Source: an uncultured Candidatus Binatia bacterium (GTDB lineage: Bacteria > Desulfobacterota > Binatia > UBA9968 > JAJDTQ01). Taken from it: a stretch of 64,000 nucleotides of DNA. The stretch spans positions 2,137,515 to 2,201,514 of the forward strand of contig OZ251459.1 in the NCBI GenBank assembly GCA_965242525.1. Direction: 5' to 3'. The notes beneath the pieces were generated by a model. It had not been told where the DNA came from. It made no database searches and worked only from the letters and a program-made list of their open reading frames with translations. Positions 9,159-51,905 of this stretch are shown piece after piece; within the stretch, counting starts at the first letter, position 1, and every line of letters starts with the position of its first letter. The position numbers and the translations under genes were made by a program.

Positions 9159-9677
9159 ACCCGTGTTTCCTGTATCCAACTCATCGTGGCGAAGACTGGA
9201 CAGTTGCAGGTTCGCGTCAGTGCGGACGAGAGGGAGCGTATCAGGCAGCGCGCGGAAAACGCGGGCATGACCGTATCCGAATGGGTGCTCAGGCAGTTGC
9301 TGCCGCCCGTCGAGGATGAGTTCCAGGGGCTTTGCCTCGGTCTTGCGGAGCGGCCCGAATTCCGCACCCACGCCCTGGCCCATCTCCATGACTTCTTCCG
9401 GCGTCTGGGCGAACGGGAATTCTCCCTGGCCGTGCGGTACCCGCCGCAGGTGGAGTTGGCGCCGTTCGAGGCAAATTACGTGGCGGCGATGGTGGAGTAC
9501 GCCGCGGTCCTCAAGGGGGCGCCGATGCCGGATTGGACCCGGGACGTGCCGCCCCTGGAGACGCCCTGGTTCGCCGCCCCCGAACGGAGCTTGCGGCTGC
9601 ATCTGCTCACGCAGTCGCCGCCGCCGTTCCGCCGGCGCAACCTGTTCGTGGACGCCAGCGTCGGGAGCCGGGCATGA
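9150..9677 (+). CDS. Ribbon-helix-helix (CopG-like) domain protein, antitoxin-like
   Basis: The N-terminal segment QLQVRVSADERERIRQRAENAGMTVSEWVLRQLL is a typical RHH motif. The stop overlaps the next gene's ATG in an ATGA junction at 9674-9677. The true start may be the GTG at 9186. Confidence 0.6.
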   Translation: MTFTRVSCIQLIVAKTGQLQVRVSADERERIRQRAENAGMTVSEWVLRQLLPPVEDEFQGLCLGLAERPEFRTHALAHLHDFFRRLGEREFSLAVRYPPQVELAPFEANYVAAMVEYAAVLKGAPMPDWTRDVPPLETPWFAAPERSLRLHLLTQSPPPFRRRNLFVDASVGSRA

Positions 9678-10240
9678 CGCCGCTGGCCCGAGAGGACATC
9701 CTCCGTTTGCTGCAACGGCTGAACGACGAGTTGGCGCGCGATGGCGTGTGCGGGGAACTCTACCTGGTCGGGGGCGCGGTGTTGTGCCTTGCCTTCGACG
9801 CTCGCCGGACGACGGTGGACCTCGACGGGTTCTTTCGTCCATCGCGCGAGATGCGTACGGCCGCGCGACGAGTCGCCGCGGCCGAAGGGCTGAACGACGA
9901 CTGGCTGAACGACAGCGCCAAGGGGTTTCTCAGTAGCAAGGGGGACTTCCGACAACATCTGGCGCTGTCCAACCTGCGCGTGCTCACGGCCAGCCCGGAA
10001 TACCTGCTGGCGATGAAGTGTCTGGCCATGCGCCTCGGCGGAGAGTTCCACGACCGGGAGGACGTCAGGTTCCTGCTCCGTTACCTGAACGTCACGCAGC
10101 AGGACGCAGCCCTGGAGATGGTGAGCCGCTACTACCCGCCGGAAAAGATCCCGCAGAAGACGTTCTACGCGCTCGCGGAAATGGTCGAAGACCTGGCGGC
10201 AGCACAGGGTGTTGCACCCGCTTCGACCGGCAAGTGTTGA
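9674..10240 (+). CDS. Minimal nucleotidyltransferase-fold protein (AbiEii/DUF6036-like), toxin-like partner
   Basis: 188 aa from the ATG verified at 9674. LYLVGGAVLCLAFDARRTTVDLDGFF matches the GG...R.T.DLD nucleotidyltransferase signature. It is translationally coupled to the RHH gene. Confidence 0.55.
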   Translation: MTPLAREDILRLLQRLNDELARDGVCGELYLVGGAVLCLAFDARRTTVDLDGFFRPSREMRTAARRVAAAEGLNDDWLNDSAKGFLSSKGDFRQHLALSNLRVLTASPEYLLAMKCLAMRLGGEFHDREDVRFLLRYLNVTQQDAALEMVSRYYPPEKIPQKTFYALAEMVEDLAAAQGVAPASTGKC

Positions 10241-10352
10241 TACTCCGTCAGGTGTAGAGCGTCGTCCGACTACAAGGGTCCGAAAGGCCGAAGTAGTAGG
10301 CGGGCCCGTCCCGTTGAACGGGTCCCTGCGATGCAACCCGGGGCCGAGGTGC

Positions 10353-10358
10353 TATACT
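10353..10358 (+). promoter_or_regulatory. Extended -10 element TGcTATACT upstream of the AAA/PD-(D/E)XK gene
   Basis: TG at 10350-10351 and TATACT at 10353-10358, only 10 nt before the ATG at 10369. No clear -35 was found. Confidence 0.3.
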
Positions 10359-10368
10359 GTTTGTCGCC

Positions 10369-11961
10369 ATGCGCTTCTTCAACACGTCGGGCCCCGTGGT
10401 CGCCGAAGACCACTACCGCATCCCGCCGCTGCAACGGGTGGATCTGGGCGAGGTCCTGGAGTTGATCCGGAGCAAGCGCTACTTCGTGCTCCATGCCCCC
10501 CGACAGACCGGCAAGACCTCCGTCCTGCTCGCCTTGCGGGACCTGCTGAACAGCGGCGCGGAGGGGGATTTCCGTTGCGTTTACGGAAACGTCGAGGCCG
10601 GTCAGGCTGCCCGGGAGGACGTGGGAGAGGCCATGCGCGCCGTCCTGGGCGAACTGGCGTCCAGGGCACTATCCTTGCACGACGAGTTCCCGGACGGCGC
10701 TTGGCCCGACATCCTCGCAAGGTCGGGTCCCCACGGAGCTCTCGGAGAGACCTTGACCCGCTGGTGTCGGGCGGACCCTCGCCCTCTGGTGCTGCTCATG
10801 GACGAGGTCGATTCCCTGGTGGGCGACACGCTCATCTCCGTGCTCCGCCAGTTGCGCGCAGGCTACGACCGGCGTCCCGAGGAGTTTCCGCACAGCGTGG
10901 TGTTGTGCGGCGTGCGTGACGTGCGCGACTACCGCATCCGGTCGAGCTCGGAGAACGCGGTGGTGGCCGGGGGCAGCGCGTTCAACATCAAGGCCGAATC
11001 CCTGCGCCTCGGGGACTTCACGGAAGCCGAAGTGCGCGCGCTGCTCAGCCAGCACACCACGGAGACCGGGCAGGCGTTCACCCCGGCGGCGCTGGATGCG
11101 GTCTGGCGGCAGACCCGCGGGCAGCCGTGGCTGGTCAACGCGCTCTGCCACCAGGCCTGCTTCCGCAACGAGGCCGGGCGCGACCGCTCCCACGCCATCA
11201 CCCACGACGACGTCCTCGACGCCCAGGAACAACTCATCCTGCGCCGGGAGACCCACCTCGACCAACTCGCCGACAAGCTCCGGGAAGACCGCGTCCGCCG
11301 GGTGGTGGAGCCGCTGCTGACCGGCGGCGAGCCCCGGTACGGTTCGCGGGACCTGGAGTACGTGCGCGACCTGGGCTTGGTCACACGGGAGTCCCCGCCG
11401 CGCATGGCCAACCCCATCTACGCCGAGGTGGTGCCGCGGGAACTGTCCCACGTGGTCCAGGACAGCCTGGAACAGGAAGTGGCCTGGTACGTGGACGCCG
11501 AGGGCGGCCTCGACATGGACAAGCTGCTCGCCGCCTTCCAGACGTTCTTCCGGGAACACTCGGAACACTGGCTGGGGCGCTTCGACTACGCCGAAGCCGG
11601 TCCGCAACTCATCCTGCAGGCATTCCTCCAGCGGGTCGTGAACAGCGACGGCCGCGTCGAGCGGGAATACGGCCTGGGAAGGGGACGAACCGACCTGCTC
11701 ATCCTCTGGCCCCGGAAAGGCCGGGAAGCACCGGAACCCGCCGTGGACAAGTTCGTCATCGAGTGCAAGGTCCTGCACAAGAGCCTGGAGCAGAGCATCC
11801 GCGAAGGCCTGGAGCAGACCGCGGGCTACATGGACCGTTGCGCCGCCCAGGCCGGCCACTTGGTGGTCTTCGACCGAAACCCGGACAGGCAGTGGGACGA
11901 AAAGATCTTCCGCCGGGACGAGTCCGTGGACGGGCGGGCGGTTACCGTGTGGGGGATGTAG
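10369..11961 (+). CDS. AAA-type ATPase with C-terminal PD-(D/E)XK nuclease-like domain
   Basis: N-terminus MRFFNTSGPVVAEDHYRIPPLQR, Walker A HAPRQTGKTS, Walker B LVLLMDEVDSL, and a C-terminal GRTDLLILWP...KFVIECKV (D...E.K) motif. Confidence 0.7.
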   Translation: MRFFNTSGPVVAEDHYRIPPLQRVDLGEVLELIRSKRYFVLHAPRQTGKTSVLLALRDLLNSGAEGDFRCVYGNVEAGQAAREDVGEAMRAVLGELASRALSLHDEFPDGAWPDILARSGPHGALGETLTRWCRADPRPLVLLMDEVDSLVGDTLISVLRQLRAGYDRRPEEFPHSVVLCGVRDVRDYRIRSSSENAVVAGGSAFNIKAESLRLGDFTEAEVRALLSQHTTETGQAFTPAALDAVWRQTRGQPWLVNALCHQACFRNEAGRDRSHAITHDDVLDAQEQLILRRETHLDQLADKLREDRVRRVVEPLLTGGEPRYGSRDLEYVRDLGLVTRESPPRMANPIYAEVVPRELSHVVQDSLEQEVAWYVDAEGGLDMDKLLAAFQTFFREHSEHWLGRFDYAEAGPQLILQAFLQRVVNSDGRVEREYGLGRGRTDLLILWPRKGREAPEPAVDKFVIECKVLHKSLEQSIREGLEQTAGYMDRCAAQAGHLVVFDRNPDRQWDEKIFRRDESVDGRAVTVWGM

Positions 11962-11994: not shown

Positions 11995-12023
11995 TTGACA
12001 CTTCACGGAGTATGGAGTATAGG
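11995..12023 (+). promoter_or_regulatory. Sigma-70-like promoter of the low-GC operon (-35 TTGACA, 17-nt spacer, -10 TATAGG)
   Basis: TTGACA at 11995-12000 and TATAGG at 12018-12023, read directly. It lies in the 110-nt gap exactly where GC content drops. Confidence 0.4.
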
Positions 12024-12071
12024 CCCCGACTAACTGATGCTTGGCCGCTTTCCCATGACAGGAGTTGTACC

Positions 12072-13106
12072 GTGACAGAACACCACAAAATGCTCGAGGT
12101 GAATCAAATTGACTTCGACACTGAAAATCCCAGGATAAAAATGGCGTTGGAGAAATACGGTAGCCGTCTGAATGCCGAGCGCATTCATTTTGCCTTGCGC
12201 TCCGCTACCGAAGGTTCCAGCGGTACTTCGTCCTACTCCAGCCTGAGAGATTCAATACGCTCTAGTCATGGGGTCATCGCGCCAATCATCGTAAGACCTA
12301 AAGGCCACAGCTACGTCTGCATCGACGGAAATACCCGCCTGGCGATCTACAAACAGTTTCAAAGAGAAGAAATAGAAGGAGATTGGAGCAAAATCAAAGC
12401 CATTGTTCTCGATCATGCCGAACAGCGCGATATCGAAACCGTCCGTGTATCGGCACACCTGGTTGGCGCCCGAGAATGGCCTGCCTACGAAAAGGCAAGG
12501 TATCTTCATTATCTCCGTAATCAGCAGTGTATGGATTACAGCGAAATGATAGCTCTCTGTGGCGGCAACAAAAACGAGATCGAACGTCAGATCGACGCAT
12601 ACCACGACATGAACTCATATTACCGAGATAAGGTGGACGACACCGCTTTTCGTATCGACCGTTATAGCGGATTCGTAGAACTTCAACGGCCGCAGGTCAA
12701 GCAAGCCATTTTTGACGCAGAATTGGACCTAGAGGATTTTGGCGAGTGGATCCGCGATGGCAAAATATACCGCTTGGAGGATGTCCGCAAGTTGCCGAAA
12801 ATCCTTCGAGACGATGAAGCCAAGCGGGTTTTCCTTGAAGGTGGACCTCGCTCAATAGAAGACGCCATGAAGGTTCTCGATCAGAGAACAGGGATCGGGG
12901 ACTCTACGGACAAGGGGCAGACCAGAGTAGAACATGCCACCATCTACGAACTCGCGGACGCGCTCAGCCGGCGAATCAATGACATGCCCTATTCGCAAGT
13001 ACGGGAATTGCGGGAGAAGACTGACGACGACACGGCAGATCAAATTACGCGATTAGAAGATCTATCCGTCAGGCTACGTAATTTGCTGAACGATGTCACA
13101 GAGTGA
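12072..13106 (+). CDS. ParB/Srx-fold N-terminal domain protein (ParB-like 1)
   Basis: INQIDFDTENPR...PIIVRPKGHSYVCIDGNTRLAIY matches the ParB N-domain pattern (DGN.R...A). The preferred start is the GTG at 12072, preceded by AGGAG 7 nt upstream. The ORF-track ATG at 12012 and the ATG at 12090 are alternatives. It is a paralog of 15008..16051. Confidence 0.7.
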   Translation: MTEHHKMLEVNQIDFDTENPRIKMALEKYGSRLNAERIHFALRSATEGSSGTSSYSSLRDSIRSSHGVIAPIIVRPKGHSYVCIDGNTRLAIYKQFQREEIEGDWSKIKAIVLDHAEQRDIETVRVSAHLVGAREWPAYEKARYLHYLRNQQCMDYSEMIALCGGNKNEIERQIDAYHDMNSYYRDKVDDTAFRIDRYSGFVELQRPQVKQAIFDAELDLEDFGEWIRDGKIYRLEDVRKLPKILRDDEAKRVFLEGGPRSIEDAMKVLDQRTGIGDSTDKGQTRVEHATIYELADALSRRINDMPYSQVRELREKTDDDTADQITRLEDLSVRLRNLLNDVTE

Positions 13107-13536
13107 AACACACAGAAACCTGGTCCTCCAGGTCGCAAGAGCAATTGAGGACCGTTATGCCCAAATATCCGTCATTACCGATTTGCAGCAGAACCCTGGA
13201 GATACAGTGCCACCAATGATCTGCGGCCACCGCCCTGATGTTTACGCCTACGAAGAAGTACAGCGCCTCTGCATCGTTGCAGAGGCCAAGACCGATTCGG
13301 ACCTCGACAATCTTCATACGCAACGCCAGTTGATGGCCTTTATCAACTATCTTAGCGACAGAGAAAAGAGCTTGTTCATCTTGTCGGTAAAGGGCACCAA
13401 GTCCGACCACGGGAAGACTCTGCTGCGGTTCACTCATCGACTTCTGGCTGTAAAGAACGTGCCTCTTGAAATTTTCGATGGTCATGATTTCTGGTCCTTC
13501 AACCTACAGGACGAAACTACGTGGCATTTACTTTGA
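13093..13536 (+). CDS. Small PD-(D/E)XK-like (restriction-endonuclease fold) protein
   Basis: 147 aa. GHRPDVYAYEEVQRLCIVAEAKT fits the D-x(n)-E-x-K arrangement. It overlaps the upstream gene by 14 nt and the downstream gene by 16 nt. Confidence 0.45.
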   Translation: MSQSETHRNLVLQVARAIEDRYAQISVITDLQQNPGDTVPPMICGHRPDVYAYEEVQRLCIVAEAKTDSDLDNLHTQRQLMAFINYLSDREKSLFILSVKGTKSDHGKTLLRFTHRLLAVKNVPLEIFDGHDFWSFNLQDETTWHLL

Positions 13537-15020
13537 GAAAACCACCCAGCCTGGTGGCAAGACACGAAGCCTATGCCTATCAGCTCGATGCTTTAAGAGC
13601 CGTAAAGGCGCTTCCTTATGCCGCCATATTCCACGAGCAAGGGCTCGGTAAAACAAAGATAGCTATTGACTTGATGTTGCTGTGGCTATCCAATGACTTA
13701 GTGGACACTGTATTTGTGATTACAAAAAAGAGCTTGGTTCAAAATTGGTTTGATGAACTTACCTCTCACTCATACGTAACTCCTCGAATTCTTTCCGATA
13801 ACCGTCGCGAGAACAGCCTCGCACTAAACTCACCTGTATTGATCTATATTATGAACTACGAAGCAATCTCGGCAAATCTTCATTTGATCGAGGATTTTCT
13901 CATTACCTGTAGGGTTGGCGCAATCCTTGACGAAAGTCACAAGATCAAAAACCCGCAAGCAAGGGCATCGATCTGCCTTCACTCTATCGCCGACAAATTC
14001 TCGCGTAAGGTGATAATGACGGGAACGCCAGTGGCGAACCGTCCTTATGATCTTTGGTCGCAAGTCAAGTTTTTGGACGGAGGACAGTCTCTCGGGTCTT
14101 CTTTTGCTGATTTCAAAGCAACCTTTGATCTTCCCGGTCAGCCAAGTTGCACACAGGAATACAGTGAACGACTATCCAATATCATTGACAAGATTAGACA
14201 TTTCTCGGTGCGAGAGACAAAGCGTACCGTAGAATTGAGCCTACCCGACAAGACAATACTAACTCATTTCGTGAACATGGCGCCTCGCCAAGCGGTAATA
14301 TATGACTCCTACGTGACCGAAGCGGCCTACGAGATCAACCTTGGGGACGACCTGATTCTGGACAACGCCGAAGACATCCTGAAACGCCTGTTACGCCTGG
14401 TGGAGTGCGCCTCTAATCCTTTCTTGGTTGACAAGAGATACTCTGAGGTGCCAGGGAAGTTCTCCGAACTCTTGAAGCTTCTCCAGGAAATTGACTTACG
14501 AGCACATAAAGTGGTTTTGTGGACAGGGTTTGTTGATAATGTAGAATGGATAACTGCCCAATTGAAGGAGTTTTCGCCCTTGAAGGTTCATGGTCGTATG
14601 TCCATTGAGCAACGGAACCAGTCCATAAGCAGATTCAAAACCCACCAGAAACACCGTGTCTTTGTAGCCACGCCTGGCTCTGCAAAGGAAGGCTTAACTT
14701 TGACAGTAGCCAATCATGCTGTTTTCTACGATCGAAGCTTCAGTCTTGATGATTACCTCCAGGCGCAAGACCGAATTCATAGAATCTCTCAAACTGAAGA
14801 CTGCTATGTACACAACTTGATCGCCAAACAAACCGTGGATGAGTGGGTGGATGCTTTGCTAAACGCAAAACATATCGCTGCACAGCTATCTCAAGGTGAT
14901 ATTTCTCAAGCTGAGTTTGAGTCTTCCTTTACCTTCAATTTAGCCGAAATACTGGCAGACATATTAACTTCCAGGTCGCTCGCTTCCAGGAGTCAGGAGA
15001 ACGGAAAATGGCCGAAATAA
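13521..15020 (+). CDS. SNF2-family ATPase/translocase (core-only, 499 aa)
   Basis: Motif I HEQGLGKT, motif II ILDESHKIKN, motif III MTGTPVANRPYDLWS, and motif VI YLQAQDRIHRISQT. GTG start at 13521. Confidence 0.85.
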   Translation: MAFTLRKPPSLVARHEAYAYQLDALRAVKALPYAAIFHEQGLGKTKIAIDLMLLWLSNDLVDTVFVITKKSLVQNWFDELTSHSYVTPRILSDNRRENSLALNSPVLIYIMNYEAISANLHLIEDFLITCRVGAILDESHKIKNPQARASICLHSIADKFSRKVIMTGTPVANRPYDLWSQVKFLDGGQSLGSSFADFKATFDLPGQPSCTQEYSERLSNIIDKIRHFSVRETKRTVELSLPDKTILTHFVNMAPRQAVIYDSYVTEAAYEINLGDDLILDNAEDILKRLLRLVECASNPFLVDKRYSEVPGKFSELLKLLQEIDLRAHKVVLWTGFVDNVEWITAQLKEFSPLKVHGRMSIEQRNQSISRFKTHQKHRVFVATPGSAKEGLTLTVANHAVFYDRSFSLDDYLQAQDRIHRISQTEDCYVHNLIAKQTVDEWVDALLNAKHIAAQLSQGDISQAEFESSFTFNLAEILADILTSRSLASRSQENGKWPK

Positions 15021-16051
15021 AGATCCTCAAGGAATCGGTGCAGGTAGTCAAGGAAGACTATGTGCATATCTACGAACTGAAGTTCCTGAAAGACAACCCT
15101 CGCGTATACGCGTGTACACATGAGTACCCGAATTTCGATGACTTGATGGAAGAGCAACAGCAAGACGTCATTTTCGATAAACTAAAGGAAGAGACGAGCG
15201 TCAAAAATCTCCGTCCTGAGATAGAACGGCATGGGGGCCTTATGGAGCCGATACTGGTTCGGCTCGATACACGCCAAGTCATTGAAGGCAATTCTCGCCT
15301 CGCTGTATACCGCCTGCTGTACGAAGGGACGAGGGAGAGCGACTGGGAATATATTCCGTGCAGCATGGTAAGTGGGCTAACAGAGCGTCAACAGGCCGCT
15401 TTTCTCAACGAAGTCCATGTGAAGGGCAAGACTCAATGGTCCCCCTACGAAAAGGCCAACTTCGCCTATGTCCGCAGGGAACGAGGTTGGAGTCTCAGTG
15501 ACATCGCCGAACTTTTCGGAGAGTCAGTAAATACGATTAGAACCCGAGTAAAGGTCATTGAAACCATGAAAGGGAACTCGGATGGCACAAAATCTCATTT
15601 CAGTCATTACGATGTACTAGTTCGAATACCTGCTATAGAGAAGGAGCTTTCTCAAAATGACGAGCTGCGCAATCTTCTTTACGCGGAGATCAAGAAGATC
15701 GATCCCAGAGACGACAAGAGCGCGAATGAGGACGAAACTGGCGAAGAGGACGAAAGCGGTTTCACCGCGCAGGAACTCAGGAGGAAACTGCCCGCGATCA
15801 TCGAGAAACCTAAGGTTTTGCGAAAATATATCGAAGGTGAAATAGATTTGGACGAAGGCTACCAGCGTGCGAAGATCAGCAACGCGGAAACCCGAGTTCG
15901 GAAAGCAAAAGGACTTTTGGAGGACGTTTCTCGAGAAGAGGTGACAAGGCTCGAACAGAATCGCTTCAATGCGTTCAAACAGGATGTACGGAGGATATCC
16001 CGCGTAGTGGAGCGCCTCAATGAGATCACAAAGGACCGTGAGACACCATGA
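15008..16051 (+). CDS. ParB/Srx-fold N-terminal domain protein (ParB-like 2)
   Basis: LKFLKDNPR...PILVRLDTRQVIEGNSRLAVYRLL. It aligns with ParB-like 1 beyond the N-domain (W.YEKA..., HTH-like SLSDIAELFGESVNTIRTRV). The ATG at 15008 is preceded by GGAGA. Confidence 0.7.
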   Translation: MAEIKILKESVQVVKEDYVHIYELKFLKDNPRVYACTHEYPNFDDLMEEQQQDVIFDKLKEETSVKNLRPEIERHGGLMEPILVRLDTRQVIEGNSRLAVYRLLYEGTRESDWEYIPCSMVSGLTERQQAAFLNEVHVKGKTQWSPYEKANFAYVRRERGWSLSDIAELFGESVNTIRTRVKVIETMKGNSDGTKSHFSHYDVLVRIPAIEKELSQNDELRNLLYAEIKKIDPRDDKSANEDETGEEDESGFTAQELRRKLPAIIEKPKVLRKYIEGEIDLDEGYQRAKISNAETRVRKAKGLLEDVSREEVTRLEQNRFNAFKQDVRRISRVVERLNEITKDRETP

Positions 16052-17688
16052 TTCCGTACAATGTACTGCTAGTCGAGCCCGGATACTTCAACAAGTATCC
16101 GCCGCTTGGGTTAATGAAGTTGGCAGCATATCATGGCGCTCGCGGTCGTGGCGACCGGGTCCGCTTCGTCAAAGGTGAGGATCGTGAAGTGTCGCTGGAG
16201 TCGTGGGATCGAGTTTATGTAGCTACATTGTTCAGTTTTGAATGGGCGCGTACTGCCGCGGCAATTGATTTTGCCATCCGGACCGTGCGCGGCCAGACAG
16301 AACGGGTATTTGTAGGCGGCATCGCCGCATCGCTTATGCATGAGCACTTTGAGAACGAACCACGATGGTCGGGTGTCCGTTTTATTAAAGGACTATTGAC
16401 TGATCCGCCGGCAGTTGCGCTGCGTTTATCAGCAGAAGATTGTGATTTTGGCTTTGACGACCACCAGGGACCCCCTATCGAGGAGTTGATTCCAGACTAC
16501 TCCATTCTCGATCAGATCGAATATTCCTATCCTGTCCGAGACGCCTACTTTGGATACGCTTCACGTGGTTGCGTTCGGAAATGTGCGTTCTGTGGCGTTC
16601 CTAAACTGGAAGGCGCTCAGCGCGAAATGCCTTCCCTTACTTCCTTGGTCAAAGGAATCGAAGATGCATACGGACCCAAGAAGGACCTGGTGTTGATGGA
16701 TAATAACGTCACGGCATCCCTGCGATACAAGGAGATAATTGCTGAAATCCGGGATCTCGGCTTCACGCCAGGCGCTAGGCTCGAACGCAGTGGGCGACCG
16801 CCGATCAAGCGACGCGTGGATTTCAATCAAGGCGTTGACGCGAGGATTCTTGCCAAGTCCCCGCTCTTTCTTAGGGAAATGGCAAAAATCTGTATCAGTC
16901 CTCTTCGTATCGCCTTTGACCACCTTGGGGTACGAAAAGTATATGAGACTTCTGTTCGAATGGCAGCACACCACGGAATCACCTCCTTATCAAACTATAT
17001 GCTCTATAACTTTATGGACACTCCCGCAGATCTATACGACCGCATGCGTTTGAATATTACCCTCAATAACGACTTGGGCATCCGTATTTGGTCATTTCCG
17101 ATGCGTTATCAGCCAGTCTATCTCAAGGACCGTTCCCACGTAGGCAAAAATTGGACGAGATACCAACTACGCTCCTTTCAGATTATGCTGCAGGCGACTC
17201 GAGGGGTTGTTAGCGGCAACCCTTCCTTCTTCATGCGGGCTTACGGAGAAGACAAACGCGACTTCGAACAACTTTTGAGTTTGCCACATGCTTTCATTTT
17301 TCACCGTGATTACTACGAGAGAGGACCAGGACGAGGCATCCGAGATGACTATGAGACGGCACGACGGCGCCTTTCCAAGTCTCAAGAACAGGAATTGCTT
17401 GGTTTGCTGGAAGGCTCGGACAGTGTACCGGGTTTTCGAAGGGATCGGCTTCGCTCTTTGGTAGCCGACCCTGGCATTGACACATCTATTCGTAGAGTCA
17501 TTCGATTTCACTTGCTGGATACAAAAGAGAAACCGCAGAACCCCATTCTGCCGCTCTTCCCCGACCTTAATCCTGATCCAGCTTTCCCTGACGACGATGA
17601 ACTTGTCGAGGACGCCGGACTCTTTGATCACGAACACGCCTTGGAACAATCTGAAAAGGCCATCAAAGGAAACCATCATGGTCAATGA
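16048..17688 (+). CDS. Radical SAM protein with B12-binding-like N-terminal domain
   Basis: ASRGCVRKCAFCGV contains the CxxxCxxC motif. The N-terminus VLLVEPGYFNKYPPLGLMKLAAY resembles the B12-binding-domain radical SAM class. ATGA overlap with the upstream gene at 16048-16051. Confidence 0.8.
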   Translation: MIPYNVLLVEPGYFNKYPPLGLMKLAAYHGARGRGDRVRFVKGEDREVSLESWDRVYVATLFSFEWARTAAAIDFAIRTVRGQTERVFVGGIAASLMHEHFENEPRWSGVRFIKGLLTDPPAVALRLSAEDCDFGFDDHQGPPIEELIPDYSILDQIEYSYPVRDAYFGYASRGCVRKCAFCGVPKLEGAQREMPSLTSLVKGIEDAYGPKKDLVLMDNNVTASLRYKEIIAEIRDLGFTPGARLERSGRPPIKRRVDFNQGVDARILAKSPLFLREMAKICISPLRIAFDHLGVRKVYETSVRMAAHHGITSLSNYMLYNFMDTPADLYDRMRLNITLNNDLGIRIWSFPMRYQPVYLKDRSHVGKNWTRYQLRSFQIMLQATRGVVSGNPSFFMRAYGEDKRDFEQLLSLPHAFIFHRDYYERGPGRGIRDDYETARRRLSKSQEQELLGLLEGSDSVPGFRRDRLRSLVADPGIDTSIRRVIRFHLLDTKEKPQNPILPLFPDLNPDPAFPDDDELVEDAGLFDHEHALEQSEKAIKGNHHGQ

Positions 17689-19186
17689 AGCAAGTGCTAT
17701 GACGACGACGACACGGCAGTCACTTGACTCGATTGGCAGCGACATTCTCAACCTAATTACCCTTGGAATGTACAATAACCCTCTTGCCATCTATCGCGAG
17801 TACATCCAAAACGCTGCGGATGCGCTTGCACGTTCTGGAAGTCGCACTGACGGCCAAGTGGCAATCCATTTTGACAAGTCCGCATCGTCCATAACGATTC
17901 GAGACACCGGACCAGGCCTATCACCGAAGTCCGCAAGACGCGCACTTTTGCCCATTGCCAAGAGCGAAAAGGAATTCCAGGCTGAACGCGGTTTTCGCGG
18001 CATCGGTCGCTTGTCCGGACTGGCTTTCGGCAAATCCGTCACCTTTCTTACGCGAGCACGAGGAGACCAGCCAGCAACAAGTGTCAAATGGGACGGACTG
18101 AAACTTCGGACAAACATTGACCAGCGCAAACCGATTGAACGGGTACTCAAGGAAGCTGTTACGGTAGAACCGCTAACAAGACCAGATTTCCCGCCACACT
18201 TCTTCGAGGTCCAAGTGAACGGTATCGCGCGACACGCAGCGGGACTGATACTCAATCGAGACGCGGTCCGGACGTACATTGGCGAAGTATGTCCTGTCCC
18301 TATTTCCCGATCCTTCCCCTTTGCAACCCGGATCCTCGCTTTATTCCAAGCGGAAGCTCCTTTATTCGCGCTGAACCTTGTCTTGGATGGCACCCCCGGC
18401 CCTGTCACACGCCCCTTTGACGACGCGATTCGATTTTCGGATGACAAGCTAGACAAGTTCACGGAGTTTCAGGAAATCAGGATCCCATCGGTAGACCGAG
18501 AAGGACATGCGGCAGTTGGCTGGATTGCACATTCAAATTATTTGGGCGCTATTCCCAAGGAACACGCCATTCGAGGTGTTCGAGCACGTGCGGGCAACAT
18601 ACAGATTGGGAACGAAGCTGTCTTTGATCACCTTTTTTCTGACGATCGCTTTAATCGCTGGTGTGTTGGCGAACTCCATATCATGGACTCGCGTATCATC
18701 CCCAATGCTCGCCGTGACTACTTTGAGCCGGGTCCACACATCCGAAACCTGGAGAACCAGCTTATCGCTGTATTTCGAGAAGTAGTTGCGCGATGCAGGA
18801 AGGCATCCGCAGAACGCAACAGGGAACGAAGGTTGCAGTCCGGATTGCGGGAAATCGAGGATGCTTATCACTTGGCACAATCCGGCTATTTGTCCATGGG
18901 AGATTCTCAAGCCTTGATCGCGCGCGGTCTCAACCGTCTCCAAGACTTCCGGAACAACTGGAGCGAGATGAACGCCTGTGCAAAGACGGAATTGGAAAAC
19001 CTTGAATCGAACCTTCAAAAATTCCAGCCTTCACATAGTCATCTACCCGTGGCTAATTTGTCAAAGTTGGAAGCGGCAACGTACAGAAAGCTTTTTCACG
19101 CTTTGGTAGAGACGTCCCCTTCCCCGCGCATTGCCAAAGAAACAATCGAAGCTGTCCTTGTCCACCTACAGCGCAGGGTCGCATGA
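17678..19186 (+). CDS. GHKL-superfamily ATPase (HATPase_c_3 / MORC- or Hsp90-like)
   Basis: 502 aa from the ATG verified at 17678. N-box REYIQNAADAL, G1 IRDTGPGL, G2 ERGFRGIGRLSGLAFG. It overlaps the radical SAM gene by 11 nt. The ORF-track start at 17477 is rejected because it lies inside the radical SAM gene. Confidence 0.75.
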   Translation: MVNEASAMTTTTRQSLDSIGSDILNLITLGMYNNPLAIYREYIQNAADALARSGSRTDGQVAIHFDKSASSITIRDTGPGLSPKSARRALLPIAKSEKEFQAERGFRGIGRLSGLAFGKSVTFLTRARGDQPATSVKWDGLKLRTNIDQRKPIERVLKEAVTVEPLTRPDFPPHFFEVQVNGIARHAAGLILNRDAVRTYIGEVCPVPISRSFPFATRILALFQAEAPLFALNLVLDGTPGPVTRPFDDAIRFSDDKLDKFTEFQEIRIPSVDREGHAAVGWIAHSNYLGAIPKEHAIRGVRARAGNIQIGNEAVFDHLFSDDRFNRWCVGELHIMDSRIIPNARRDYFEPGPHIRNLENQLIAVFREVVARCRKASAERNRERRLQSGLREIEDAYHLAQSGYLSMGDSQALIARGLNRLQDFRNNWSEMNACAKTELENLESNLQKFQPSHSHLPVANLSKLEAATYRKLFHALVETSPSPRIAKETIEAVLVHLQRRVA

Positions 19187-19199
19187 GAGGAAACGGCGT

Positions 19200-20681
19200 T
19201 CAGAGTTTCTCTACGCGGCTTGCCCTCGAACGCAGAAAGTTGAAATCGGCGTCGTCACCGACATCCGGCATCGCGAGCAAGCGTTCGATAAAAGTCTCCG
19301 GCTGACGCTGCTTCCGCTGTGTCTTCAAGCCGCCCCGCCATTCCAGCAGGACGACTTCTTCTCGAAGCTGTTCGCCGGTCACCGTCGAAGGGCGTGTCCG
19401 AAAGAGGTCGATGCCCATGACCCGGTAGTGCAACGACCGGGCCAAGTCGGCCAGGAGTCGGCCCGTGGGGATACGGACCCGCAGATACGACGCCTGGTCG
19501 CCGACCACGTAGGCGAGCCTGGCCCCCGGCTTGAGGACGGCGCGGAGCGACGCGAGGTGTTTCGCCATGCCGCCGAAGTAGAGCCGCGTGACGCGCGGAT
19601 ACAACCGCTCGAAGCCGGAGGTCTTGCCCAACTCGATACGGCGCTTCTCGATGGCTTCGGCGATGTCCCGTATCTCGGCATGGTCGGCAACCTCACGATC
19701 GTCCGTGTCCGCCTTATAGACGCCCCGGGTGTTGGACCGGATCAGGTTCCGTTTCATGGACCGCAATTCCTGCCGGTCGCGCACCAGTCCCAGGATGACG
19801 GACTCCAACCGTGTGGTGCGCGTGTAGTCCTTTTCGTTGGGATACGGCGGGGAGGTGATCACGGTATCGACGGACCCCGGCTCCAGCGCTCGATGGATCG
19901 CGCGGGCGTCCGCCTCCACGACCCGGGACGGCGCGTCCGTCCGGCCCTTGAGGAGTTCCAGGTCGCCGACGATGGTTCGGAAGCAGTCGAGCCAGGCGTC
20001 GACGGCCGGCGCGTCGTCCTTGATCCGGCCCACGCCGACTTCGGGACCGAACTTCAGGTTCCCGATGCGCAGCACCAGCGCGTTGGCAAGCGCCAGGCGG
20101 CCATAGGGCCGCAGTTGCGGCCGGTCGTGCCGGTCCATGGCGTCCAGCAGGGTCAGCGTCTTGTGGAGGGGCAGCGGACTGATGGAGTCCTTCAGCAGCA
20201 GTTTCGACCGGTCGGGGGGAAGACCCTGCAACACGGGTGGTCCGCTCCCGTTCGCGGCGAAGAGCGGAAGCCCCGCGGCCTCCCGGATGCCCTGCCGTTC
20301 CAGCGTCCTTCGCGCCGCCGCCGCAACCCGACGGGAATAGTCCGAAAGCGCCGCCGGGTCGGCCGACCAATCGACCTTCACCGAACTCGCAAAAGACCCC
20401 ATGGGGTTCGACTCGACGCCCACGCTGGGAATGCCGAGTTTCTTGCACTCCACCAACGTCGTGCCCGTGCCGCAGAAGGGGTCCAGGACCGTATGGGAGC
20501 GGTCCACGCCGAGCCGTTCCATGTAGTCCCTTACCAAGTGGGGCGGGAACGACAGGACGAACCGATACCATTGATGGGCCGGACGGTCTTCAGGCCGCAG
20601 CCTGTTCCGGTCGCCTTGGGTTCCGCCGGTGTCGGCAACCGCGGCCCGGCCGCTGCGCGTATCGGAAATCAGATCCGCCAT
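19200..20681 (-). CDS. DNA methyltransferase (motif I before motif IV SPPY; N6-adenine or N4-cytosine type)
   Basis: LDPFCGTGTTLVECKKLG (AdoMet-binding motif) and VDTVITSPPYPNEKDY (catalytic motif). The ATG at 20679-20681 is verified as 'cat'. The gene has host-like high GC and its stop lies 13 nt from the GHKL gene's stop. Confidence 0.75.
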   Translation of the reverse strand: MADLISDTRSGRAAVADTGGTQGDRNRLRPEDRPAHQWYRFVLSFPPHLVRDYMERLGVDRSHTVLDPFCGTGTTLVECKKLGIPSVGVESNPMGSFASSVKVDWSADPAALSDYSRRVAAAARRTLERQGIREAAGLPLFAANGSGPPVLQGLPPDRSKLLLKDSISPLPLHKTLTLLDAMDRHDRPQLRPYGRLALANALVLRIGNLKFGPEVGVGRIKDDAPAVDAWLDCFRTIVGDLELLKGRTDAPSRVVEADARAIHRALEPGSVDTVITSPPYPNEKDYTRTTRLESVILGLVRDRQELRSMKRNLIRSNTRGVYKADTDDREVADHAEIRDIAEAIEKRRIELGKTSGFERLYPRVTRLYFGGMAKHLASLRAVLKPGARLAYVVGDQASYLRVRIPTGRLLADLARSLHYRVMGIDLFRTRPSTVTGEQLREEVVLLEWRGGLKTQRKQRQPETFIERLLAMPDVGDDADFNFLRSRASRVEKL

Positions 20682-20745
20682 CGGAGTTCCTGGCCGAACG
20701 GGTCGAGGGAGTCCAGCCTTTCCATGGCAACACGTGCGAGAACCG

Positions 20746-21459
20746 TCAGTCCACCGGAACGCAGGTGACCTCCACCCGTCCGTCACCGTGCAGTCGAACC
20801 GCGTTGACCGTGCCGGCGTAGGTCGGAGACCCCGAGTAGTAGGCGGGCACCCCGTCTTCGCCCACGCGCACGGCGCGGTTCCAGTGGCCCAGAGCCACGT
20901 AGTCGGCGCGGCTGGCGGCCAAGTTCTCCTGCCGGATCAGCCACGAGCCCAGCAGCAGGCCCGCCCGGGGCGCGTCCTCCACGTAATGGCCGTGGGCCAC
21001 CGCCAACTGCCAGCGGGTGCGCCGCTCGGGCGGCTCGGGCAGGGGCATCATGTCCAGGTAGTCCACGTGGGGACGGCCCCATACCTCCAGGTCCAGCTCG
21101 GGGAAGCCGCTCCGGTCCTCGGTGAGGCCCAGCACGCGCACGTTACCCGCGCCGGCGAACTCGGACCGGCGATAGACCGAATCAGGAGTCAGGGGGTCGT
21201 GGTTGCCCGGCAGGACCACGATGGGGAGGCCGGAGTCGGCCATGACTCCGGCCGCGTCCTCGATGAACCGGGGACCCTGGCGGTTGTGGTCGAAGGTGTC
21301 CCCCGCCAGGATCACCAAGTCGGCGCCCTGGGCGCTCGCAATCGAGAGCACCTGTTGCAGCACCGGCAGGTTGCCGGAATCGTCTTCGTTCAGGACGCTG
21401 TCCGCGCCCAGGTGGAGGTCCGATGTGTGGACGACGAGGACTTCACGCGGTGCGTTCAT
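20746..21459 (-). CDS. Calcineurin-like metallophosphoesterase (SbcD/Mre11-like fold)
   Basis: VVHTSDLHLG, LILAGDTFDH, VVLPGNHD and AVAHGH motifs. Start verified at the ATG at 21459. Confidence 0.75.
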   Translation of the reverse strand: MNAPREVLVVHTSDLHLGADSVLNEDDSGNLPVLQQVLSIASAQGADLVILAGDTFDHNRQGPRFIEDAAGVMADSGLPIVVLPGNHDPLTPDSVYRRSEFAGAGNVRVLGLTEDRSGFPELDLEVWGRPHVDYLDMMPLPEPPERRTRWQLAVAHGHYVEDAPRAGLLLGSWLIRQENLAASRADYVALGHWNRAVRVGEDGVPAYYSGSPTYAGTVNAVRLHGDGRVEVTCVPVD

Positions 21460-21661
21460 GCTGGCGGTTTCTCCCTTCCCGGTGCGCCGCGGCCTGCGGG
21501 GACGCGGCTCCGCGGGCCGCAAGCGCGTCCGTCCCGGGGGCCTGGACCCGCCGGACACCGAGGGCCTGCCGGACGGAGGCGCCCTCTTCCAACGGCATGT
21601 GGTCGGGAGCCCTGGCGCCGGCTGCGGGACGGAAACCGCTGCGGAAGGCCTGCGGCCCGGG

Positions 21662-25856: not shown

Positions 25857-27011
25857 ATGGAACCCTTCTCGCTCTACGTCCACATCCCCTACTGCGTCAG
25901 CAAGTGCCCCTACTGTGACTTCAACTCCCACGTGGCCGCCCGCATCCCCGAGGGGGAGTACACCGGCGCCGTGGCCCGGGAGCTGCGCCATCATGCCGGT
26001 TCGGAGCGGTGGGCCAACCGGTCCGTCAGGACGGTCTTCTTCGGCGGCGGCACGCCTTCGACCTTCCACGGGGACAGCATCGCCGCGCTGCTCGACCAGG
26101 CCGCCGGGCTGTTCCGCTTCGAGGAGCGGATGGAGGTCACGCTGGAAGCGAACCCCGGGGCCGCGGACGCCGGCCGGTTCCGGGACTACCGGGGCTGCGG
26201 CGTCAACCGCATCAGCGTCGGCGCCCAGACCTTCGACCCCGGGCTGCTGCGGTTCCTCGGCCGCAGCCACGGGGCCGCGGAGACGCGCCGCGCGCTGGAG
26301 GGCGTCCGGGACGCAGGCTTCGACAACTTCAGCCTCGACCTGATCTACGCGGTCCCGGGGCAGACCGTGGACGGCGTGGACCGGGACCTCAAGCTGGCCC
26401 TGGAAAGCCGGCCGCCCCACCTGTCCGCCTACAACCTCACCATCGAGGAAGGGACGCCCTTCCACGCCCGCTACCGCCAGGGCCGGCTGCGCCCGCTGGA
26501 CGAAGAGACCGAGGTCGAGATGGCCCGGCGCATCGACCTCACCCTCGCCCGGGCCGGGCTGCGGCGGTACGAGATCTCCAACTACGCGCGCCCGGGCTTC
26601 GAATCGCGCCACAACGTCAACTACTGGGAGGGCGGCGACTACCTCGGCGTGGGCGCCGGCGCCCACAGCCATTACCGAAGGCCCGGAGACCCCCTGGGCG
26701 AGCGCTGGCAGAACGAGCGGTCCCCCGCGGCCTACATGCAGCGCACGCGCGAAGACGGCCACGCGGTCACCCAACGCGAGCGTCCGGGACCGCGCCAGGC
26801 CATGGCGGAACACCTGTTCACCGGGCTGCGGATGATCGAAGGGGTCCCGGTCCCCGCCTTCCGGCGCCGTTTCGGGACCACGCCCCGGGACGCTTTCCCC
26901 GCGGTCGGGGAGTGGCTCGGCGACGGCCTCCTGGCCGAAGAAGGCCAACGCCTCCGCTTCGCGCCCGAAGGGCTGCTGCTGGCGGACGAACTCTTCCTTC
27001 GACTCGTGTGA
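25857..27011 (+). CDS. hemW: Radical SAM heme chaperone HemW (HemN-like, oxygen-independent coproporphyrinogen oxidase family)
   Basis: LYVHIPYCVSKCPYCDFNS, FFGGGTPS, and HemN_C-like tail. Confidence 0.85.
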   Translation: MEPFSLYVHIPYCVSKCPYCDFNSHVAARIPEGEYTGAVARELRHHAGSERWANRSVRTVFFGGGTPSTFHGDSIAALLDQAAGLFRFEERMEVTLEANPGAADAGRFRDYRGCGVNRISVGAQTFDPGLLRFLGRSHGAAETRRALEGVRDAGFDNFSLDLIYAVPGQTVDGVDRDLKLALESRPPHLSAYNLTIEEGTPFHARYRQGRLRPLDEETEVEMARRIDLTLARAGLRRYEISNYARPGFESRHNVNYWEGGDYLGVGAGAHSHYRRPGDPLGERWQNERSPAAYMQRTREDGHAVTQRERPGPRQAMAEHLFTGLRMIEGVPVPAFRRRFGTTPRDAFPAVGEWLGDGLLAEEGQRLRFAPEGLLLADELFLRLV

Positions 27012-47024: not shown

Positions 47025-47036
47025 GGGCCACCGAAG

Positions 47037-47516
47037 ATGTGCATCATCGTGGACGCCAACAAGCTCGATGTCTTTCTCGCCGACCCGGCCGACGAGAATT
47101 CCAGGCCGATACGCAGGTGGCTAAGTCAGGGCGCGGGGAGCATCGTGTATTCGACGGAAGGCAAGTTTGCGCAGGAGATCCGAGGTCGAGCCAAGGCCAA
47201 GCTGGCCGATTACGTTCGAGCCGGCAGAGCGAAGCACGTCCCCGCGAGCCTGTTCGCCGACGAAGAACGCAAGCTGGAAACTCACGCAGACCTCCGCTCC
47301 GATGATCCGCACGTGCTCGCGTTGGCGAGAGCGACCGGTGTACGTCTCCTGTACACCGCAGACGGGAAACTCACGTCGGACTTCAAGAACAAGAACATCA
47401 TCGACCGGCCGAGGGGCAAGGTTTATTCCGGCGCAGGCAATGCCAATCTGCTGACCCCCTCGGCATGTGCGTCGTCATGGCCAAGGTCTGCTTCGAAATC
47501 ATGGCCGACTTCATAG
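47037..47516 (+). CDS. PIN-like domain protein (predicted nuclease partner of the ATPase)
   Basis: MCIIVDAN... and SDDPHVLALARATGVRLLYTADGKL resemble PIN acidic-residue motifs. It starts 12 nt after the ATPase stop. The assignment is tentative. Confidence 0.45.
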   Translation: MCIIVDANKLDVFLADPADENSRPIRRWLSQGAGSIVYSTEGKFAQEIRGRAKAKLADYVRAGRAKHVPASLFADEERKLETHADLRSDDPHVLALARATGVRLLYTADGKLTSDFKNKNIIDRPRGKVYSGAGNANLLTPSACASSWPRSASKSWPTS

Positions 47517-47586
47517 ACACCGGCATCGCCGGGAACCTGAAGCGTCCGGGATCCAGCAATTGAGGACAGGATCGAGAAATCCGGCA

Positions 47587-49347: not shown

Positions 49348-49364
49348 AGGGGAGAGATTTCGCC

Positions 49365-51854: not shown

Positions 51855-51905
51855 TCGCCTTGGGGAATCGCAAAGCGGCGCTTCGGCAATCCCGGAGATG
51901 GTACA

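Follow-up and report, generated by a model that had tools for sequence, protein, structure and literature searches.

The window, namely the whole stretch of 64,000 nucleotides analyzed here, contains a low-GC island of 7.2 kb (positions 12000–19190), in which composition profiles give a GC content of ~44–55% versus ~65–72% in the flanks. Genes of high GC content adjoin the island, one for an AAA ATPase and one for a DNA methyltransferase, and the island holds a cassette of six genes, A to F, all of which overlap start-to-stop: a ParB-like protein, a small PD-(D/E)xK-like protein, an SNF2 helicase, another ParB-like protein, a radical SAM enzyme, and a GHKL ATPase. In related loci also, the mean GC content of the cassette is 55% versus 62% in the flanks. 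When the edges of the island were searched, no tRNA and no flanking direct repeats that we judged convincing were found, and matches to promoter and terminator consensus sequences were about as frequent as chance predicts. Both the upstream AAA ATPase and the downstream N6/N4 DNA methyltransferase (19200–20786) were considered as members of the system and discarded, as neither recurs in any of the related loci; furthermore, across those loci the cassette retains neither a methyltransferase nor any other enzyme that would be a candidate for marking.

All six genes lie on the + strand. Gene A (12012–13106; 364 aa, with an uncertain start codon) opens the accessory module and encodes a ParB_N-type protein, which gives weak matches to Pfam ParB_N and NCBIfam Noc/ParB, hits ParB-like PHROGs, and retains the boxes L..SI....G...PI.V, GNTR, and H.VG.R.W..Y.KA among 52 homologues. 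Gene D (15008–16051; 347 aa) encodes a second ParB_N-type protein, a paralogue of the first (28% identity, E 6e-14) with matches to ParB-like PHROGs and the conserved boxes NPR, EGNSRLA, and H..G...W..YE.A; its stop codon overlaps the start of the radical SAM gene (ATGA). Between these two, gene B (13093–13536; 147 aa) matched no family in Pfam, NCBIfam, PADLOC, or PHROG profile searches and has a PD-(D/E)xK-like motif set with conserved PD...ExK residues: H7, D30, R47-P48-D49, E64, H75-T76, Q79, and F83 are invariant among its homologues, and K66 is nearly so. Its product is hence a candidate nuclease, and its position between genes A and C holds without exception in the related genome and metagenome loci. 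Gene C (13521–15020; 499 aa) is an SNF2-family helicase/translocase core without a fused nuclease (Pfam SNF2-rel_dom, 105 bits; Helicase_C, 59 bits), in which the GLGKT and DESH motifs are intact and conserved across homologues; in PADLOC, it best matches ZorD and DpdE, in both cases over their helicase portions.

Gene E (16048–17688) is present as in the initial annotation, namely with an ATG start and a product of 546 aa, and is a real gene rather than a chance reading frame as it has over 7000 homologues and, at 50% clustering, 2013 representatives. The CxxxCxxC motif for a [4Fe-4S] cluster, GCVRKCAFCGV (C175-x3-C179-x2-C182; 16570–16593), aligns with the cluster loop of RimO/TM_1862, and its three Cys residues are invariant in 51 homologues, the alignment of which has a mean column identity of only 21%. 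A first AlphaFold model based on 30 close homologues reached a pLDDT of 65, and this was raised to 89.9 by the 51-sequence alignment with distant representatives. In the latter model, the N-terminal segment that had been called Rossmann-like is predicted to be a beta-alpha Rossmann domain of the B12-binding-like type (residues 1–120; 16048–16407) with a highly conserved beta1-alpha1 loop, EPxYxNKYPPLGLMK, and is followed by a radical SAM barrel, a helical C-terminal domain (residues 370–490), and a disordered acidic tail. The protein thus has the TIM-barrel core (partial or full beta/alpha) of the radical SAM superfamily and also the class B architecture, in which an N-terminal Rossmann domain of the B12-binding type is fused to that core. 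As for the tail, the earlier description as acidic stands, and the region around VEDAGL is disordered in the model as well; the tail is nonetheless not merely of low complexity, as it carries a conserved E-[IV]-VEDAGLFD at residues 518–527. Within this segment lies the short linear motif V520-E-D-A-G-L-F-D527 (17605–17628), of which V520, E521, D522, G524, and L525 are invariant in the alignment of close homologues.

In terms of family assignment, the gene E product scores 19.1 bits against Pfam PF04055 (Radical_SAM), for which the cut-off is 29.5 bits, and two of its relatives pass (P0133, 35.1 bits; P0137, 31.0 bits). No curated family in Pfam, NCBIfam, or PADLOC names the protein, PADLOC gives nothing for the radical SAM or the GHKL protein, an exact-sequence look-up returned no match, and the members of its sequence cluster are without names. 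Assignment to a known metabolic radical SAM subfamily would have spoken against the initial annotation, and none lays claim to it; the NCBIfam matches, with E ~1e-3 at best, are far under the cut-offs. A sequence search of the PDB gave RimO/TM_1862 alone, with an E-value of 0.02 and around the cluster loop. When the predicted structure was compared, however, both domains were matched by MgmA (the top match), TsrM, CysS, and TokK and equally well by AprD4, RimO, and MiaB; residues ~1–110 also resemble isolated cobalamin domains. PF02310 has no match in the protein and a weak one in a single family member (P0219); to our knowledge, class B enzymes share no common cobalamin-binding sequence motif. 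The gene E product may use cobalamin, as its predicted fold suggests. The class B methylases MgmA, TsrM, CysS, and TokK are just 12–17% identical to the gene E product, and known class B members act on peptides, proteins, and small molecules in biosynthetic clusters, whereas gene E sits amid genes for DNA proteins. Methylation is also only one option among several for its chemistry, because the equally good structural matches include AprD4 (a diol dehydratase) as well as RimO and MiaB (methylthiotransferases), which have the same two-domain fold and, as far as we know, neither use cobalamin nor are cobalamin-dependent methylases. AprD4 furthermore belongs to an aminoglycoside cluster context, which is missing around gene E. 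Judging from its sequence and the model, gene E encodes a radical SAM enzyme that is divergent yet intact and that has a Rossmann domain of the B12-binding-like type.

Gene F (17678–19186; ~502 aa), the first 11 nt of which also form the end of gene E, encodes a GHKL ATPase of the Hsp90/MutL/MORC type. The protein matches Pfam HATPase_c_3 with 45.5 bits, its best PDB sequence match is the N-domain of HtpG, and its N, G1, and G2 boxes are intact, with E..QN..D, D.GpGL, and RG.GRL conserved in 80 homologues. Weak NCBIfam matches were found to the HSP90 family and to the BbrUII/HgiDII restriction enzyme; gene F thus weakly resembles the GHKL/paraMORC proteins of restriction-modification contexts and has, like them, a complete Bergerat-fold ATPase, but it scores far under the cut-offs of those families and has no recognized nuclease domain. 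The radical SAM gene has the GHKL gene next to it in 79 of the 80 related genome loci (counts uncorrected for phylogeny), and gene F is its obligate partner. Also, we noticed that a relaxed form of the tail motif is present in 85 of the 87 homologues with a GHKL gene directly downstream versus two of the 74 without it, again uncorrected for phylogeny. The VEDAGL tail is therefore proposed, from this sequence pattern, to be a docking peptide for the GHKL partner.

The initial annotation emphasized that the neighbours of gene E are DNA-acting proteins, and this description holds well beyond the window. The five neighbours are two paralogous ParB_N-type proteins, a PD...ExK protein, an SNF2 helicase, and a GHKL ATPase, and among the six cassette genes there is no biosynthetic enzyme or obvious peptide precursor. 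The DNA-centred context is no local accident, being conserved in ~160 loci from more than ten phyla in sponge, soil, peat, and freshwater, although the co-occurrence statistics across these loci are uncorrected for phylogeny. SNF2-seeded loci from soil, peat, and freshwater metagenomes retain the order A-B-C-D, and the radical SAM–GHKL pair accompanies this module in all 21 such loci with at least 5.5 kb of flank on each side, a limited sample uncorrected for phylogeny; the side and the strand of the pair vary. The two modules are hence separable, and within the same limited and phylogeny-uncorrected sample (21/21) the A–D nuclease module never occurs without the pair. In other loci, alternative accessory modules take the place of A–D beside the pair, namely a NurA-like protein with a 565-aa protein and a second GHKL protein, a 772-aa DndB/DGQHR protein with a HEPN protein, and a PIN_8 protein with GHKL and DGQHR proteins.

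Just ahead of the radical SAM gene, 40 of 42 metagenome loci encode a ParB-superfamily protein, mostly in an overlapping frame; it is gene D-like in 14 of the 42 and of the DGQHR type in 26, and the remaining two upstream genes match no reference protein. Seven further metagenome loci, beyond the 42, had no qualifying upstream ORF, and where the pair lies ahead of the A–D module, no conserved gene was found upstream of the radical SAM gene. The DGQHR partner matches TIGR03187 with 154 bits, and its sole PADLOC match is DpdB; on the plasmid pNL1, the upstream partner is likewise a true DGQHR protein, of which DpdB is the nearest defence family. The upstream partner in the window itself is of the ParB_N type, not DGQHR.

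Of all components, the radical SAM enzyme varies least (median identity, 64–68% versus 31–56% for the others), and it remains 55–75% identical across phyla while its partners change between subtypes. The closest relatives (64–75% identical) are encoded in metagenome-assembled genomes (MAGs) of more than ten phyla, several of these MAGs having sponge-derived names; this degree of identity across phyla points to an intense horizontal exchange of the cassette in the sponge-linked community. Other relatives are on conjugative plasmids such as pNL1 of Novosphingobium aromaticivorans DSM 12444 (SARO_RS17520–17530) and on plasmids of Rhizobium (R. leguminosarum WSM1325, NC_012854, being one natural carrier), Mesorhizobium, and Bradyrhizobium. 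The cassette has clearly been acquired horizontally.

Given these observations, we tentatively propose, with a confidence somewhat short of even, that the products of genes E and F are the invariant core of a widespread and mobile two-module system that acts on DNA and marks that of the host. From the gene context, we infer DNA as the substrate of the radical SAM enzyme and, likewise, methylation and self/non-self marking, both of which the initial annotation had suggested. Because a DpdB-like DGQHR partner is so frequent, a role at the level of DNA is the most parsimonious interpretation. In the proposed scheme, which would work like the modification-restriction systems Dnd and Dpd, the ParB-like protein and an ATP-driven GHKL clamp would deliver the radical SAM enzyme to DNA, with the VEDAGL tail peptide tethering the enzyme to the GHKL protein. 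The [4Fe-4S] cluster would then cleave SAM, and a radical-dependent mark would be put on host DNA; the mark would most likely be C-methylation if the Rossmann domain holds cobalamin. The variable nuclease/translocase module (in the window, ParB, PD-(D/E)xK-like, SNF2, and ParB proteins) would in turn find and destroy unmarked incoming DNA. The high conservation of the radical SAM enzyme fits this scheme, as restriction-modification systems usually vary less in the enzyme that modifies than in the rest. Against a marking function, no target recognition domain was recognized besides the HTH parts of the ParB-like proteins, and many defence systems with translocases and nucleases, Zorya, Lamassu, and Wadjet among them, do not mark self DNA.

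Among known systems, Dpd (DpdA/DpdB/DpdC plus DpdD–K) has the same two-module layout. In relatives of the cassette, the DpdB-like DGQHR gene overlaps the start of the radical SAM gene; the other module has an SNF2-type helicase, and DpdE is among the best PADLOC matches of gene C. The ATPase DpdB is required for DpdA to modify DNA (PMC10164549). The cassette nonetheless lacks a TGT-family DpdA, DpdC, and the preQ0 pathway, and its candidate marker is the radical SAM enzyme with the GHKL protein; the subtype in the window, furthermore, has ParB_N-type proteins instead of DGQHR. Dpd proper was accordingly rejected, as no cassette gene has a TGT domain. Dnd and Ssp are similar in that a ParB-superfamily accessory protein (DndB is a DGQHR protein) accompanies an Fe–S-dependent DNA-modifying machinery, and also in their separable modification and restriction modules and horizontal spread (PMC10853773). 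DndC and SspD are, however, PP-loop (PAPS-reductase-like) enzymes outside the radical SAM superfamily (PMC10853773), and the cassette has neither a cysteine desulfurase nor a DndD/SMC-like ATPase. Precedents for radical SAM enzymes in DNA chemistry or defence are phage M6 gp53, spore photoproduct lyase, prokaryotic viperins, and OpnA of Ophion, and gp53 is the precedent for action on the DNA polymer (PMC8989533). In the literature searched, we found no description of the gene E enzyme or of this gene combination, nor of any GHKL ATPase paired with a radical SAM enzyme.

A bolder form of this proposal, which we regard as possible but doubtful, is an immune system, widespread among bacteria, that marks its own DNA through a radical SAM enzyme, maybe cobalamin-dependent, that is loaded by ParB/DGQHR proteins and a GHKL clamp. 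The mark could then be a C-methyl or another radical-installed group on a base, sugar, or the backbone.

Alternatively, the system might defend without marking, for example by abortive infection, with the radical SAM enzyme being an effector triggered once the ParB, SNF2, or GHKL proteins detect foreign DNA; we consider this rather unlikely. Such an effector might attack the foreign DNA itself, abstracting hydrogen from deoxyribose and so causing strand breaks or lesions, or might convert a nucleotide to an antiviral analogue in the manner of viperins acting on CTP. Prokaryotic viperins are radical SAM effectors of defence, and ParB-family proteins bind CTP or NTP. The lack of an evident target-recognition domain is also in favour of an effector, as is the joining of the core pair with several nuclease/translocase modules, which fits one effector with many sensors; the GHKL ATPase could then be a switch instead of a loader. 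Gene E is itself not a viperin (pVip), for which a single-domain fold with a nucleotide-binding C-terminal extension would be expected. Another radical SAM defence effector is OpnA of Ophion, a system that also comprises the PHP protein OpnB and the PRTase OpnC (bioRxiv 10.1101/2025.09.30.679545). The cassette is not Ophion, as genes for PHP and PRTase proteins are missing from it and from the related loci.

It appears improbable that the cassette serves a mobile element, where the radical SAM–GHKL pair and the ParB-like protein would hypermodify plasmid, phage, or island DNA against host restriction or exclude rival elements. Horizontal acquisition and the close relatives on conjugative and other plasmids are in favour of this possibility, and the wider family extends to phages: residues 5–370 of gene E match PHROG 9298 (“radical SAM domain protein”; E 7e-38), with which the Rossmann-plus-barrel core is shared, at least 495 matches to this family are on viral contigs, and the phage copies sit among DNA methyltransferases (Dam/Dcm) and PAPS-reductase-family genes, a setting that we also count in favour of the main proposal. 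These phage forms are, however, shorter (~290–360 aa), have neither the helical C-terminal domain nor the VEDAGL tail or GHKL partner, and may serve another function. In the window and most MAG loci, moreover, the cassette is chromosomal, amid housekeeping and metabolic genes and without an integrase, tRNA, or att repeats, and its full six- or seven-gene form with a nuclease and a translocase resembles a restriction arm, not an escape function.

It is about as improbable that the enzyme modifies a protein or RNA, such as its GHKL or ParB partner or a tRNA or rRNA, and thereby regulates DNA proteins. In favour of this, RimO and MiaB rank high in the structural comparison, the weak sequence matches are limited to RimO around the cluster loop, and MgmA, the top structural match, methylates a protein residue; the tail peptide is also taken as an intimate contact with the GHKL protein. 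Nevertheless, C175, C179, and C182 are the only invariant Cys residues, and no conserved Cys is present in residues 1–170, which leaves no UPF0004 three-cysteine site; the C-terminal domain is all-helical with no TRAM domain, and the NCBIfam RimO score is 18.6 bits, for which the cut-off is 357. Without the N-terminal triad and the TRAM domain, therefore, gene E is not a methylthiotransferase. Genes related to RNA or encoding peptide precursors are not conserved nearby, and the near constancy of the enzyme (55–75% identity) with varying partners argues against a partner-specific substrate other than the GHKL protein. Finally, an ordinary metabolic radical SAM enzyme placed beside DNA genes by chance is highly improbable: the sub-threshold Pfam Radical_SAM score says little about function by itself, but the conserved context with overlapping reading frames in ~160 loci and more than ten phyla contradicts such a coincidence, and no metabolic family matches.

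In conclusion, we have described a radical SAM family with thousands of members that are linked to DNA loaders, translocases, and nucleases, and which is thus a concrete candidate for a new DNA mark or a new antiviral effector. Radical SAM chemistry on DNA was previously known only for spore photoproduct lyase, in repair, and phage M6 gp53 (PMC8989533). The VEDAGL motif, which tracks the GHKL partner, offers a direct handle on complex formation, and genetics and nucleoside mass spectrometry are feasible because cultivable bacteria carry the family on plasmids. If the marking of host DNA is correct, this radical SAM enzyme would become the first known cellular “writer” of a DNA mark of its kind, and the mark would represent a new chemical class of self/non-self label. 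The enzyme may write or attack DNA by radical chemistry in an undescribed bacterial defence system.

The radical SAM gene (E; 16048-17688, 546 aa) lies in an island at about 12.0-19.2 kb, where the composition profile gives a GC content of 44-55% against about 65-72% in the rest of the window. The island holds a cassette of six genes, all on the + strand and with every stop overlapping the next start: namely, A (12012-13106, 364 aa) and D (15008-16051, 347 aa), both of the ParB N-terminal type, B (13093-13536, 147 aa) with a PD-(D/E)xK-like motif pattern, C (13521-15020, 499 aa) with an SNF2 helicase core, E itself, and F (17678-19186, about 502 aa), a GHKL ATPase. The initial annotation had described the neighbours of E as DNA-binding proteins, translocases or nucleases, and family and motif analysis bore this description out. 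Indeed, A and D are paralogous (28% identity, E-value 6e-14) with conserved motifs (box I-like, GN(T/S)R, and H..G..W..YE.A), while the helicase motifs of C are intact, and C most closely matches ZorD and DpdE in their helicase parts. F has intact N, G1, and G2 boxes, is nearest to the N-domains of Hsp90/HtpG, and also shows weak similarity to restriction enzymes of the BbrUII/HgiDII family. B has no family match; the pattern invariant among its homologues (H, D, RPD, E-x-K, HT, and Q..F) is typical of PD-(D/E)xK nucleases and hints, at the motif level, at such an enzyme.

The window scan found ordinary chromosomal genes around the island, such as those for SecA, pyruvate:ferredoxin oxidoreductase, and AdoHcy hydrolase. 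We also noticed that the cassette is inserted amid other conflict-type genes (9533-11961 and 19200-21558): a weak AbiEii-like nucleotidyltransferase (9533-10240) and a high-GC AAA_22/AAA_35 ATPase (10369-11961) upstream, and a high-GC N6/N4 DNA methyltransferase (19200-20786, - strand) overlapped by a calcineurin-like phosphoesterase (20746-21558, - strand) downstream. None of the four recurs beside the cassette in related loci, and the AAA ATPase and the methyltransferase were therefore ruled out as parts of the unit. Further away, a second defence-like island of lower GC (45678-55439) carries an ATPase with AAA_15/AAA_21 and DUF3696 (45678-47024), a protein that combines Schlafen AlbA_2 with HATPase_c_4 (47467-49347), the specificity subunit of a Type I R-M system (49586-50926) with neither HsdM nor HsdR among the scanned neighbouring ORFs, an AAA_21 ATPase (51906-53147), and an AAA-ATPase_like + PDDEXK_9 protein (53721-55439).

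Sequence models recognize E poorly. E reaches 19.1 bits for Pfam Radical_SAM, where the cut-off is 29.5, the best NCBIfam matches (RimO and a B12/radical SAM lipid enzyme) have E-values of about 1e-3 with cut-offs above 350 bits, PADLOC gives no match, and a search of PDB sequences hits only RimO/TM_1862 (E-value 0.02), confined to the cluster loop. An HemN-like radical SAM gene 8 kb from E (25857-27011) scores 87 bits for Radical_SAM and also matches HemN_C, showing that the standard models do detect an ordinary radical SAM enzyme here. More than 7000 homologues of E were scored; the best 120 (68-97% identity, about 540-550 aa) include no named protein, and nearly all miss a precomputed Pfam match. 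In an exhaustive profile search, the family comprised 2013 representatives at 50% clustering (E-value ≤1e-3), of which 364 reach ≤1e-30. P0133 (35.1 bits) and P0137 (31.0 bits), both distant members, do exceed the Radical_SAM threshold, and one distant member has a weak B12-binding domain match. Other distant members are long (P0142, P0158, P0180, P0181, and P0190, about 805-824 aa; P0218, 791 aa); their C-terminal (about 350 aa) or N-terminal (about 310 aa) extensions have no Pfam match and might reveal a substrate or partner.

The CxxxCxxC motif initially noted is present as C175-x3-C179-x2-C182 within GCVRKCAFCGV, and E does start with the β-α segment that had been likened to a Rossmann fold. 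Because these three are the sole invariant cysteines in an alignment of 51 sequences (21% mean column identity), the family has one cluster site and lacks both an auxiliary-cluster domain and an N-terminal triad of cysteines. The AlphaFold model built from this alignment (pLDDT 89.9, pTM 0.89) consists of a Rossmann domain (residues ~1-120) followed by a linker, a radical SAM barrel (~166-365), a helical domain (~370-490), and a disordered tail, so that, as far as the fold goes, the label "B12-binding-like radical SAM enzyme" is correct. From such a fold, E may possibly use cobalamin. AprD4, nonetheless, has the same fold and is not known to use cobalamin, and the corresponding domain of the methylthiotransferases RimO and MiaB serves an Fe-S cluster, for which E lacks the cysteines. 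The β1-α1 loop (EPxYxNKYPPLGLMK) is among the best-conserved stretches in the alignments and appears compatible with a ligand of some kind bound there. The net charges of the barrel (+11) and the helical domain (+5) are also compatible, albeit weakly, with nucleic-acid binding.

Loci related to the cassette were then collected with sequence patterns as seeds, rather than as a census, and the counts of co-occurrence given below are not independent of phylogeny. A scan for E in genomes, with one genome per species and patterns favouring close relatives, gave 80 loci (L001-L080; 64-75% identity) in MAGs of more than 10 phyla, including Poribacteria, Latescibacterota, Dehalococcoidia, Binatia, Nitrospirales, Gemmatimonadota, Acidobacteriota, Alpha- and Gammaproteobacteria, Ca. 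Poriferihabitaceae, and Ca. Spongiihabitans. In NCBI annotation, relatives carry no more specific name than "radical SAM protein", "DGQHR domain-containing protein", or "ATP-binding protein". In 79 of the 80 loci, E has F as its immediate neighbour, and the mean GC content is 55% in the cassette versus 62% in the flanks. Judging from taxon names (Poribacteria, Ca. Poriferihabitaceae, Ca. Spongiihabitans, Latescibacterota, and others), many of these organisms would be sponge symbionts, and the distribution suggests that horizontal transfer of the cassette is rampant in such a community, the habitat being read from the names only.

The A-B-C-D module accompanies the E-F pair in approximately two-thirds of the genome loci, either upstream, downstream, or inverted, and is elsewhere replaced by other modules. 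One of them, in about 20 loci (L002, L018, L019, L022, L034, L065, L075, and others), combines a 362-aa NurA-like protein (Pfam NurA, E-value 0.006, a weak assignment), a 565-aa protein with no Pfam match, which we suspect from its sequence to be HerA/FtsK-like, and a second, paralogous GHKL protein. In Marinitoga camini virus 1 (L085, 7113-9821), an E homologue adjoins genes annotated as HerA and Rad50/Mre11-associated exonuclease. Another replacement is a DndB/DGQHR-HEPN protein of 770-772 aa (L047, 7636-9954; L083, 12183-14492) with a C-terminal Swt1-like HEPN domain and an N-terminal region that, on reading, looks like a restriction-endonuclease fold; this protein might on its own constitute the effector arm of the same core. 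The remaining replacements are GHKL with a 336-aa protein and, on rhizobial plasmids and the Novosphingobium aromaticivorans conjugative plasmid pNL1, PIN_8 with GHKL and DGQHR.

Reciprocally, when the SNF2 gene was used as the seed in JGI metagenomes, 80 loci were obtained with contig names suggesting varied, mostly non-sponge samples. The order A-B-C-D is invariant in them, and the E-F pair is present, on either side and either strand, in every one of the 21 loci that extend at least 5.5 kb to each side. A ParB-superfamily gene lies directly upstream of E in 40 of 42 metagenome cases: a D-type ParB in 14 and, in 26, a DGQHR protein that is 42-59% identical to that of pNL1 and usually overlaps E by 8 nt. 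The pNL1 protein scores 154 bits for TIGR03187 and matches nothing in PADLOC except DpdB. In median identity to the window proteins, E is the highest (64-68%), the values for the others being 37-54% (A), 32-40% (B), 51-56% (C), 31-41% (D), and 35-49% (F). These results establish a two-part system, in which an invariant core of a ParB-superfamily protein, radical SAM enzyme, and GHKL protein is joined to an exchangeable nuclease/translocase arm.

The C-terminal tail of E had been called long, acidic, and of low complexity. It is indeed acidic (net charge -9) and disordered in the model, but within it residues 518-527 are conserved as E-[IV]-VEDAGLFD, a motif whose V520, E521, D522, G524, and L525 are invariant in close homologues. 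Among 161 homologues, a relaxed form occurs in 85 of the 87 with a GHKL gene directly downstream versus 2 of the 74 without (Fisher p = 9e-41, uncorrected for shared ancestry, these counts being phylogenetically non-independent). The motif may serve as a peptide by which E docks to its GHKL partner.

We tentatively favour a scheme, by analogy with Dnd and Dpd modification-restriction systems, in which E would place a protective mark on host DNA by radical chemistry, and the variable arm would restrict DNA without the mark. The ParB-like protein and a GHKL clamp would deliver E to DNA, with the tail peptide as a tether. This marking scheme is favoured because the cassette resembles Dnd/Dpd in its two-part layout, in having a DpdB-like partner, in lacking any other candidate for the marking enzyme, and in its pattern of conservation; in Dpd, the DGQHR protein DpdB gives the ATPase activity required for DNA modification by DpdA (PMC10164549). 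The charge of E and the precedent for radical SAM chemistry on a DNA polymer (phage M6 gp53, PMC8989533) are weaker points in its support.

Alternatively, the E-GHKL unit might serve mobile elements in anti-restriction hypermodification or exclusion, given that relatives of E occur on plasmids and phages; as a main role this is unlikely, since the chromosomal, integrase-free contexts and the nuclease arms speak against it. Residues 5-370 of E match phrog_9298, a family of phage proteins labelled "radical SAM domain protein" (E-value 7e-38), and the short phage and plasmid members of that family (about 290-340 aa; L086-L089, viral L119-L169) have no GHKL partner and neighbour Dam/Dcm methyltransferases, PAPS-reductase-family genes, thymidylate synthase, and DUF5131, which hints that they act on their own in the DNA metabolism of mobile elements, possibly in counter-defence. 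A protein or RNA substrate, as the structural neighbours RimO, MiaB, and MgmA might suggest, is improbable because E misses the defining methylthiotransferase features and no RNA-related partner is conserved. That E is a metabolic enzyme adjoining DNA genes by coincidence is excluded for practical purposes by the conserved context.

The literature searched holds no description of a radical SAM-GHKL-ParB/DGQHR combination, and PADLOC v2 lacks a model of the core. We would class the cassette as a defence system that is modular, targets DNA, and follows a modification-restriction-like logic; radical DNA marking by E, if true, would be a categorically new chemistry.
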